Origin: Escherichia phage PhiR44_2
Sequence record: PV340564
Reading direction: 5' to 3' (one strand)
Length of the DNA: 35,994 nucleotides
Part shown: positions 11,558 to 12,082 of the stretch, piece after piece
Position numbering within the stretch: position 1 is the stretch's first letter
How the letters are laid out: the number at the start of each line of letters is the position of its first letter
Made by a program: the position numbers and the translations under genes
Notes under the pieces: model-generated
What the model saw: the letters and a program-made list of their open reading frames with translations, nothing else
Database searches by the model: none
What the model was told of the DNA's origin: nothing

Positions 11558-12082
11558 ATGGTCATTAATTACAAGCAGTTAAGAGAAAAACGGGAGCAGG
11601 TAAAGGAGAGCTTTCGCCGCAATGAAGATCTGACCCCGCTTGTACGCCTTGCCCAGGGCATTGTTGATGCTTATGAAATCTCGCTGGAGCTGCCATCACA
11701 GACCTGGACAGATAGCGACGGTAATCGCCAGCATTACGTTTCATGCGGACTGGAAGCAGCCGAAGGATTTCGCAGAATGCCTTTATCCCAGATCCCTGCC
11801 GCTACCCCCAAAGCACGGGGCAGCAATGATGAGCGAAAACTGACTTTTAGTATTGAAACGGTGGTTGACGACACACCTGGCGAAGTCGCGTTCGTGCACA
11901 CGCCTGTTTCGATCGCAATGTATAACGATGAAATACAGGTTCGCGTTAATAATAATATCGTGCCACTTAAAGAAGGTAATTCACCCTACACCACCGTTTG
12001 TGAAGCCATTCAATATTACGTTCTCTCTGAAATTGATAATCTCAAGCCTGACGGCACCCAGAAAATGGTTCAACTCTGGTAA
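11558..12082 (+). CDS. Orphan hypothetical protein (174 aa) between the repeat-rich non-coding region and portal gene
   Basis: ORF 11519..12082, ATG at 11558 with GGAGG upstream; no family recognised. Confidence 0.6.
   Translation: MVINYKQLREKREQVKESFRRNEDLTPLVRLAQGIVDAYEISLELPSQTWTDSDGNRQHYVSCGLEAAEGFRRMPLSQIPAATPKARGSNDERKLTFSIETVVDDTPGEVAFVHTPVSIAMYNDEIQVRVNNNIVPLKEGNSPYTTVCEAIQYYVLSEIDNLKPDGTQKMVQLW

Follow-up and report, generated by a model that had tools for sequence, protein, structure and literature searches.

Why does a phage built on the plan of P2 carry a complete gene between its probable packaging site and its portal gene, where P2 itself has 186 bp from the start of cosL to Q, containing only the terminator tQ? 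The gene in question encodes 174 amino acids and lies at 11558-12082 on the plus strand of the window, by which we mean the whole 35,994-nt stretch of Escherichia phage PhiR44_2 analyzed here (PV340564). An earlier note, made from the letters alone, had read it as a well-formed single-gene moron of no recognisable family. Below we consider how the gene came to this site, to which family its product belongs and what that product may do.

A single-gene cassette at the end of portal gene Q

The host element is a P2/P88-like (Peduoviridae) prophage, and positions 11000-12200 of the window are 100% identical to a stretch of E. coli U15A. In the U15A prophage, integrase, cox and early genes are followed by the gpA replication endonuclease (which maps to about 5383-8205 of the window), ParM/ParR-like partition genes, a ClpX zinc-finger protein, two small ORFs, an annotated pseudogene fragment, a non-coding block of about 455 bp, the 174-aa gene, and then Q, P, O, N, M and L. 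The gene is thus situated between replication gene A and portal gene Q, the position that characterizes cargo of the P2 gpA-gpQ hotspot. Other cargo lies further upstream, between gpA and cos. It comprises a ParM/StbA actin-like ATPase with a ‘plasmid partitioning/stability family’ partner (8230-9505), a partition module of the kind present in about a quarter of P2-like phages (PMC9122126), and a ClpX-type C4 zinc-finger protein (9569-9901; Pfam E=6.8e-18). A further ORF at 10176-10706 weakly resembles the Mom DNA-modification family, its Pfam score of 22.7 bits falling short of the cut-off (27.1), and in the identical U15A prophage PGAP marks it as a pseudogene fragment only; it may be a decayed anti-restriction gene of the hotspot.

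The 174-aa ORF (19.8 kDa, pI 5.0; WP_000236495.1) begins with an ATG preceded, at a distance of 7 nt, by a Shine-Dalgarno GGAGG (11546-11550, plus strand), of which GGAG is invariant in the orthologue alignment; an upstream GTG at 11519 is an alternative start that would yield 187 aa. Comparison of four E. coli alleles differing by at most 5.5% at the DNA level gave dN/dS values of 0.06-0.11 for the gene and of 0.01-0.03 for the adjacent portal gene Q. Among the records listed, PGAP calls an intact CDS for the gene in those from E. coli. We reject a chance ORF or a pseudogene on the basis of the low dN/dS and the depth of conservation, as full-length homologues reach down to 21-23% identity, and conclude that the ORF is a real gene under strong purifying selection.

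Downstream, a bidirectional intrinsic terminator (12083-12113) was identified by both a terminator scan and an inverted-repeat search. Its GC-rich hairpin (stem 12088-12108), flanked by a T-run on each strand, starts 5 nt past the end of the ORF and is common to the 174-aa gene and Q. Both Q (348 aa, 12097-13143) and its neighbor P (13143-14894) lie on the minus strand, the 174-aa gene therefore converging on Q; the Q stop codon (12097-12099) falls within the hairpin, and the last five codons and stop of Q are contained in the terminator of the cassette. The gene also differs from both neighbors in composition, with a GC content of 0.476 (Q, 0.528; P, 0.538) and a GC3 of 0.48 (Q, 0.59; P, 0.60).

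Alignment with the gene-less prophage ARS-C101 delimits a cassette of about 632 bp (11483-12114, plus strand) that replaces 18 nt at the 3′ end of Q, namely the stop and the last five codons. In ARS-C101 the conserved non-coding block continues directly into the Q stop (...GCGCG-TCA-GGA-TGT...). In the window, the left junction lies after GCGCG(TCAG), TCA being the Q stop of phages without the gene, and the right junction falls at the Asp codon 12115-12117. The Q protein consequently ends in LLDEKTAP in the window and in LLDTQPTS in gene-less ARS-C101. Replacement of the extreme C-terminus of the portal protein is evidently tolerated (DEKTAP here, DTQPTS where the gene is missing), the last five codons and the stop of Q being supplied by the cassette and lying within the stem of its terminator.

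The gene was found in 397 of 5426 complete E. coli genomes, always on the chromosome and almost always in single copy, its carriers including the pathogenic lineages JJ1887, O111:H- and O55:H7; in about 750 further E. coli genomes the cos block and the terminal part of Q are found without it. Phage records divide in the same way, the gene being present in vB_EcoM-705R2 and vB_EcoM-569R5 and missing from P88, 520873, 500465-2, 503458, Chuche, P88_4B11 and Shae_phiSM. All of these records have the upstream block in common (93-100% identity), and the phage can therefore do without the gene. The copy in ETEC H10407 (NC_017633; L024, 1501-2641) is truncated at about codon 130 by an IS1 insertion.

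Presence or absence between conserved flanks, a terminator of its own and a composition unlike that of its neighbors are the hallmarks of a moron. We conclude with good confidence that the locus is a self-contained single-gene moron, comprising putative promoter, RBS, ORF and bidirectional terminator, which illegitimate recombination has placed at the very 3′ terminus of Q, to the portal side of the probable cos, and that it encodes a soluble, mildly acidic α+β protein without catalytic signature, dispensable to the phage and drawn from an uncharacterised family of Enterobacterales temperate phages. The earlier note anticipated much of this. Its well-formed gene with a good RBS, its bidirectional terminator shared with Q, its lower GC content relative to the late neighbors, its convergence with Q and its short non-coding stretch in P2 all agree with the features described above, and its moron reading is borne out by presence or absence among near-identical phages, the gene's own terminator, a conserved promoter-like pair and the deviant composition.

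The conserved non-coding block and the probable cos region

To the left of the cassette, a conserved non-coding block (11032-11486) is 93-96% identical to gene-less P88-like phages; it also aligns to the gene-less ARS-C101 prophage, and phage matches cover positions 1-457 of the query. The block opens with three copies of TGCACAA at an exact 10-nt spacing (11032, 11042 and 11052; span 11032-11058), with a fourth copy at 11124, and the linear phage record LR595891 begins and ends at about 11076/11077 of the window. A search for the P2 cos 19-mer found it neither in the window (up to three mismatches) nor in related loci (up to four), the P2 cos region shares no similarity with the block, and an Rfam scan of 10800-12300 returned a chance-level match only. 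From its position, the TGCACAA repeats and the one linear phage record, we infer that the block at 11032-11486 is the cos or packaging region, within which 11032-11130 is a candidate terminase-binding and cos region unrelated in sequence to P2 cos.

Near its right end, the block contains a perfect 13-bp inverted repeat with a 3-nt loop (11430-11458; GCCGGGGCATAAA/TTTATGCCCCGGC) and no T-run beside it. In phages without the 174-aa gene this hairpin sits about 25-30 nt past the Q stop, and it may be either an ancestral end-of-Q terminator or a packaging element. The block also includes a 42-codon GTG ORF (11286-11414), annotated as ‘hypothetical protein’ in several records, which differs from ARS-C101 at 13 nucleotides, 10 of them amino-acid-changing, and is probably non-coding.

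A putative promoter in the leader

The 71-nt leader of the gene contains a putative sigma-70 promoter (11499-11527, plus strand), in which a -35 element, TTGCCG (11499-11504), is separated by a 17-nt spacer from a -10 element, CAAAAT (11522-11527). The pair scores 8/12, which is under the threshold of the consensus scan. Two Salmonella orthologues, with 60-61% protein identity, have TTGTCT-17-CAAAAT and GGAG in register within an otherwise diverged leader, and TTGxCx-17-CAAAAT is invariant across the E. coli and Salmonella orthologues. Because the -35/-10 pair has been kept in the Salmonella orthologues despite their diverged flanks, we regard it as the putative promoter of the gene itself, for which this phylogenetic footprint constitutes moderate evidence. 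Two lambdoid homologues have in common a TGGCATACT extended -10-like motif located 25-35 nt upstream of their start codons. The Ogr-dependent late promoters of P2 are marked by the motif TGT-N12-ACA; reading the sequence by eye, we saw no such element upstream of the 174-aa gene.

A broad family of hypothetical proteins

The protein has no match in Pfam, NCBIfam or PADLOC, and the literature searched yielded nothing under the protein accessions or the PHROG number. It does match the HMM of PHROG 5091, of unknown function, along its full length (E=1.4e-67, 227.5 bits; residues 1-168 against positions 1-164 of a 164-position profile). This PHROG bears no functional annotation, and the family as defined here is much wider: an exhaustive profile search gathered 88 representative clusters (50% identity) at E<=1e-3, nearly all of them full-length at 155-185 aa. 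Four motifs recur along the family alignment, MxITYxDIRxKR, YxxSLxLPxxxWxDxxGxxxxYV, FxIxTVxDDxP and VCxxIK. Named members come from Escherichia, Salmonella, Trabulsiella, Morganella, Serratia, Klebsiella, Xenorhabdus and Phytobacter, all of them annotated as ‘hypothetical protein’. Among 50,697 phage records the family is present in four only, each of temperate-type organization (P2-like or lambdoid), and it is absent from virulent phages.

Searches with the family as a whole were equally sparing of annotation. For 57 members, Pfam gave isolated marginal matches only and PADLOC-DB 2.0 gave two (E ~0.005-0.009, in one member each), and a profile search of the PDB returned nothing. We discounted a PDB sequence match to designed helical-repeat proteins (E=2.7e-7) as an artefact, as it consists of about 11 bits per repeat (i-Evalue 2-3) summed over the repeats. 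By sequence, no relationship to a structural or packaging protein emerged from the family libraries, PHROG, the PDB or an hhalign comparison with the P1 protein DarA.

A predicted α+β binding module

An AlphaFold2 model built from a 57-sequence alignment (mean pLDDT 80.8, pTM 0.71) predicts two N-terminal helices (residues 5-22 and 26-42), an antiparallel β-meander (49-135) and a C-terminal helix (143-159). The conserved residues of the family are mostly aromatic or aliphatic core positions together with the DDxP turn, and no catalytic constellation is found among them. With a pI of 5.0, a net charge of about -6 and a GRAVY of -0.50, the 174-aa sequence contains no signal peptide, lipobox or transmembrane segment, and neither Pfam and NCBIfam searches nor the Pfam scan of the family revealed a DNA-binding or enzymatic domain. 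Foldseek against the PDB and BFVD gave no match with E<=0.001; the weak fold neighbors include AcrIIA11, toxin-immunity proteins and P1 DarA. Taken together, the model and these searches suggest a non-enzymatic binding module without close structural relative.

Two more specific identities were rejected. A DNA mimic of the Ocr/ArdA type is at odds with a net charge of only about -6 and a pI of 5.0. DarA, a head-internal anti-restriction protein of P1 (PDB 9vz0_I), is 9% identical and has an hhalign probability of 0.6%, that is, no profile similarity, and its structural score barely exceeds those of unrelated α+β proteins, for example 6.5 for the PI31 FP domain and 6.4 for actin-capping protein. 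With hhalign negative and nothing from Foldseek, we ascribe the likeness to generic architecture and reject homology to DarA.

Family members occupy module junctions of temperate phages

In P2-like prophages, family members stand beside the portal gene and converge on it in E. coli (the window), in two Salmonella prophages and in Morganella morganii (23% identity). The two Salmonella prophages differ in their upstream cargo, a ClpX zinc-finger protein in one and a YafO toxin in the other. E. coli B771 (NZ_CP120557; L032, 2954-3457) possesses a 21%-identical member, related by hhalign with a probability of 98.8% (E=1e-16), whose insertion point corresponds to about 11415-11425 of the window, some 30 bp further left and upstream of the hairpin at 11430-11458; insertions of the B771 type occur in 32 of 5426 E. 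coli genomes. The B771 member was captured independently, within the same interval of about 100 bp between cos and Q. The annotated start of its 236-aa CDS is probably too far upstream, the family-consensus start being the Met at residue 70.

Other contexts are more diverse. In Trabulsiella the member directly follows gpA, ahead of HicB and Phd/Fic modules. Four lambdoid phages (a metagenomic contig, Escherichia phage CharmingMan, Serratia fonticola and Klebsiella) carry it between the antiterminator Q and the holin gene, a short fifth contig, which stops before any Q gene, has it directly 5′ of the lysis genes, and in an E. coli lambdoid prophage it lies between the lysis genes and the terminase gene. 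A Xenorhabdus myophage (L031, 7001-7498) presents an unusual moron site, the member lying in a tail operon behind a spacer of about 300 nt; it is flanked on one side by the sheath and tube genes with a 137-aa ORF, and on the other by an ORF of 835 aa that is probably the tape measure. One member neighbors an EcoRII restriction-modification system, and one subfamily resides in a non-phage chromosomal neighborhood with betC-like sulfatase, OpuAC and LysR genes. The family is thus found mainly at module junctions of temperate phages. Conflict genes are often nearby, including EcoRII restriction-modification, HicB, Phd/Fic, YafO and TerB/TciB-like genes; no partner gene recurs across the contexts, and therefore the protein appears to work alone.

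These results qualify the earlier note in three respects. Its ‘no recognisable family’ stands as regards Pfam, NCBIfam and PADLOC but fails in view of the full-length match to PHROG 5091. The remote homology and structure search that it had recommended revealed a wide family extending to 21-23% identity, but no structural match in the PDB or BFVD at the Foldseek threshold. Finally, it had held that homology to a structural or packaging protein conserved at this position would speak against its proposal; the family does recur at the site (in Salmonella, Morganella and E. coli B771), but the gene is dispensable and shows no such homology.

Possible functions of the 174-aa protein

The reading that we favor, tentatively, is that the protein would exclude rival phages or satellites, or defend against them, much as P2 Tin does, although without kinship to Tin. 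The gene would be driven by its own weak sigma-70 promoter, and hence would be expressed in the lysogen as well, and its product would, alone and stoichiometrically, bind a protein of the incoming competitor (phage or satellite), the outcome being lysogenic conversion, exclusion or defence. Consistent with such a role, the locus lies inside the published P2 hotspot, conflict genes are often neighbors of family members, and the family is confined to temperate-type phages among the 50,697 records. The autonomous cassette with its presence or absence between relatives, the dN/dS of 0.06-0.11, the conserved -35/-10 pair and the repeated appearance of the family at module junctions point the same way. 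Our preference is tempered by several observations, however. The protein has no homology to a known defence protein in PADLOC or to Tin, and lacks any effector-like domain, transmembrane segment or enzymatic motif. The ctx gene of phage phiCTX, at the same sub-position, encodes a toxin; most contexts of the family are within or adjacent to late operons, which would fit a role in the lytic cycle equally well; and one subfamily belongs to an ordinary chromosomal neighborhood. Machine learning flags just 15-32% of the unknown proteins of P2-like prophages as antiviral (PMC13586616). Assuming that the gene was in the library, the absent PADLOC match also implies that the family was not recovered by an E. 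coli library selection against T4, lambda-vir and T7 (PMC9519451).

A more far-reaching form of the exclusion or defence reading is possible, but doubtful. The family may be a new single-component one of undescribed fold, repeatedly captured beside packaging sites and acting in mobile-element conflicts, for example by stoichiometrically inhibiting the late machinery of a competitor or satellite (packaging or assembly) or a host immune sensor. If this is true, the repeated insertions in the cos-Q interval of about 100 bp would reflect selection for linkage to cos or the portal gene, and not chance.

A small, acidic (pI 5.0), non-enzymatic and stand-alone protein could also serve counter-defence, as a stoichiometric inhibitor of the immunity of the host or of rival elements that is made from a constitutive promoter as soon as the DNA has entered and once more in the late lytic phase. 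The weak fold neighbors AcrIIA11, toxin-immunity proteins and P1 DarA would suit this role, restriction-modification or toxin-antitoxin cargo often adjoins family members, and the putative constitutive promoter would fire on infection too. We nonetheless consider counter-defence unlikely, given that the family is absent from virulent phages among the 50,697 records and that, if the proposed cos is right, the gene would sit beside Q at the left end of the packaged DNA. In P2 this end is not expected to enter the cell first. Known anti-defence genes, moreover, are reported to be rare in P2-like prophages (PMC13586616).

The proximity of so many family members to late operons raises the prospect of a non-essential accessory of the lytic cycle, that is, a factor for assembly, packaging or the timing of lysis, or one inside the virion, produced along with the late proteins. 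In P2-like phages, however, the gene converges on the late P-Q operon and stands outside it, with no TGT-N12-ACA element visible upstream. Functional sister phages do without the gene, and the ETEC H10407 copy is interrupted by IS1; the position differs between phage types, which is atypical of morphogenetic genes, and DarA shows no profile kinship (hhalign probability 0.6%). We accordingly judge a lytic accessory distinctly improbable. Least probable of all, and in our estimate very unlikely, is a lysogenic conversion of host physiology (stress, metabolism or virulence regulation) that does not concern other mobile elements, for which the position and architecture of phiCTX ctx, carriage by pathogenic lineages (JJ1887, O111:H-, O55:H7) and the subfamily in a chromosomal metabolic neighborhood (betC-like sulfatase, OpuAC, LysR) could be cited, but against which stand the lack of a signal peptide, lipobox or transmembrane segment, which argues that the protein is not a secreted toxin or surface protein, the lack of a DNA-binding or enzymatic domain, and the spread of the family over many Enterobacterales genera of differing lifestyles.

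Although about 7% of complete E. coli genomes contain exactly this gene and relatives occur across Enterobacterales prophages, it has neither annotation nor structural relative. The breadth of the family and its repeated independent capture in the same interval of about 100 bp between cos and Q add to its interest, and a clean, portable 0.6-kb cassette under strong purifying selection makes a useful candidate for assay. Should the favored exclusion or defence role, or a conflict role more generally, prove true, the protein would be a new single-protein player, apparently with a new fold, among phage-phage conflict systems, and might help to explain the build-up of cargo next to cos. If it has no such role, it would be a reminder that hotspot cargo is not all defensive.

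Comparison with known systems

Published work has identified the gpA-gpQ interval of P2-like prophages as a hotspot of antiviral systems (Rousset et al. 2022, PMC9122126; Vassallo et al. 2022, PMC9519451; PMC13586616). Table S5 of PMC9122126 lists WP_000236495 at least 167 times, labelled ‘hypothetical’, and in at least two cargo arrangements, one with DUF4760+StbA+... and the other with StbA+Plasmid_stab_B+zf-C4_ClpX+...; therefore the 174-aa gene does not depend on what lies upstream. Neither WP_000236495 nor any of the neighbor names that we searched is found among the systems tabulated as tested in the same study. The hotspot studies take the whole A-Q interval as one hotspot. Within it, the P2 genes old and tin resemble the 174-aa gene in being located between gpA and gpQ, variable among phages and non-essential, but they lie on the gpA side of cos, whereas the 174-aa gene has the probable cos block on its left and Q on its right. 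Tin itself is unrelated to the 174-aa protein (hhalign probability 0.9%).

The closest architectural parallel is ctx of phiCTX, a P2-like Pseudomonas phage (Citexvirus), in which cosL is followed by a -35/-10 pair of its own, a single plus-strand gene, terminators, and convergent homologues of Q and P. It is the only characterised gene that we found at exactly this sub-position, and it is a cytotoxin and not a defence gene. The products are unrelated (hhalign probability 0.1%), Ctx being a pore-forming cytotoxin according to its record annotation and the literature, in contrast to the 174-aa protein, which is predicted to be soluble and has no export signal.

The morons of lambdoid phages, reportedly defined by Hendrix and colleagues with lambda bor and lom and stx in the Q-S interval as examples, offer a second parallel. 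The likeness extends to a single gene with its own promoter (here putative) and terminator, atypical composition and presence or absence between relatives, and family members occupy comparable sites themselves, from Q to holin and from lysis genes to terminase. Whereas Bor and Lom belong to the envelope and Stx is a toxin that is secreted, the 174-aa protein is predicted to be cytoplasmic. Among these systems, the 174-aa gene finds its place as uncharacterised cargo of the already known cos-proximal hotspot of P2, catalogued there as hypothetical.
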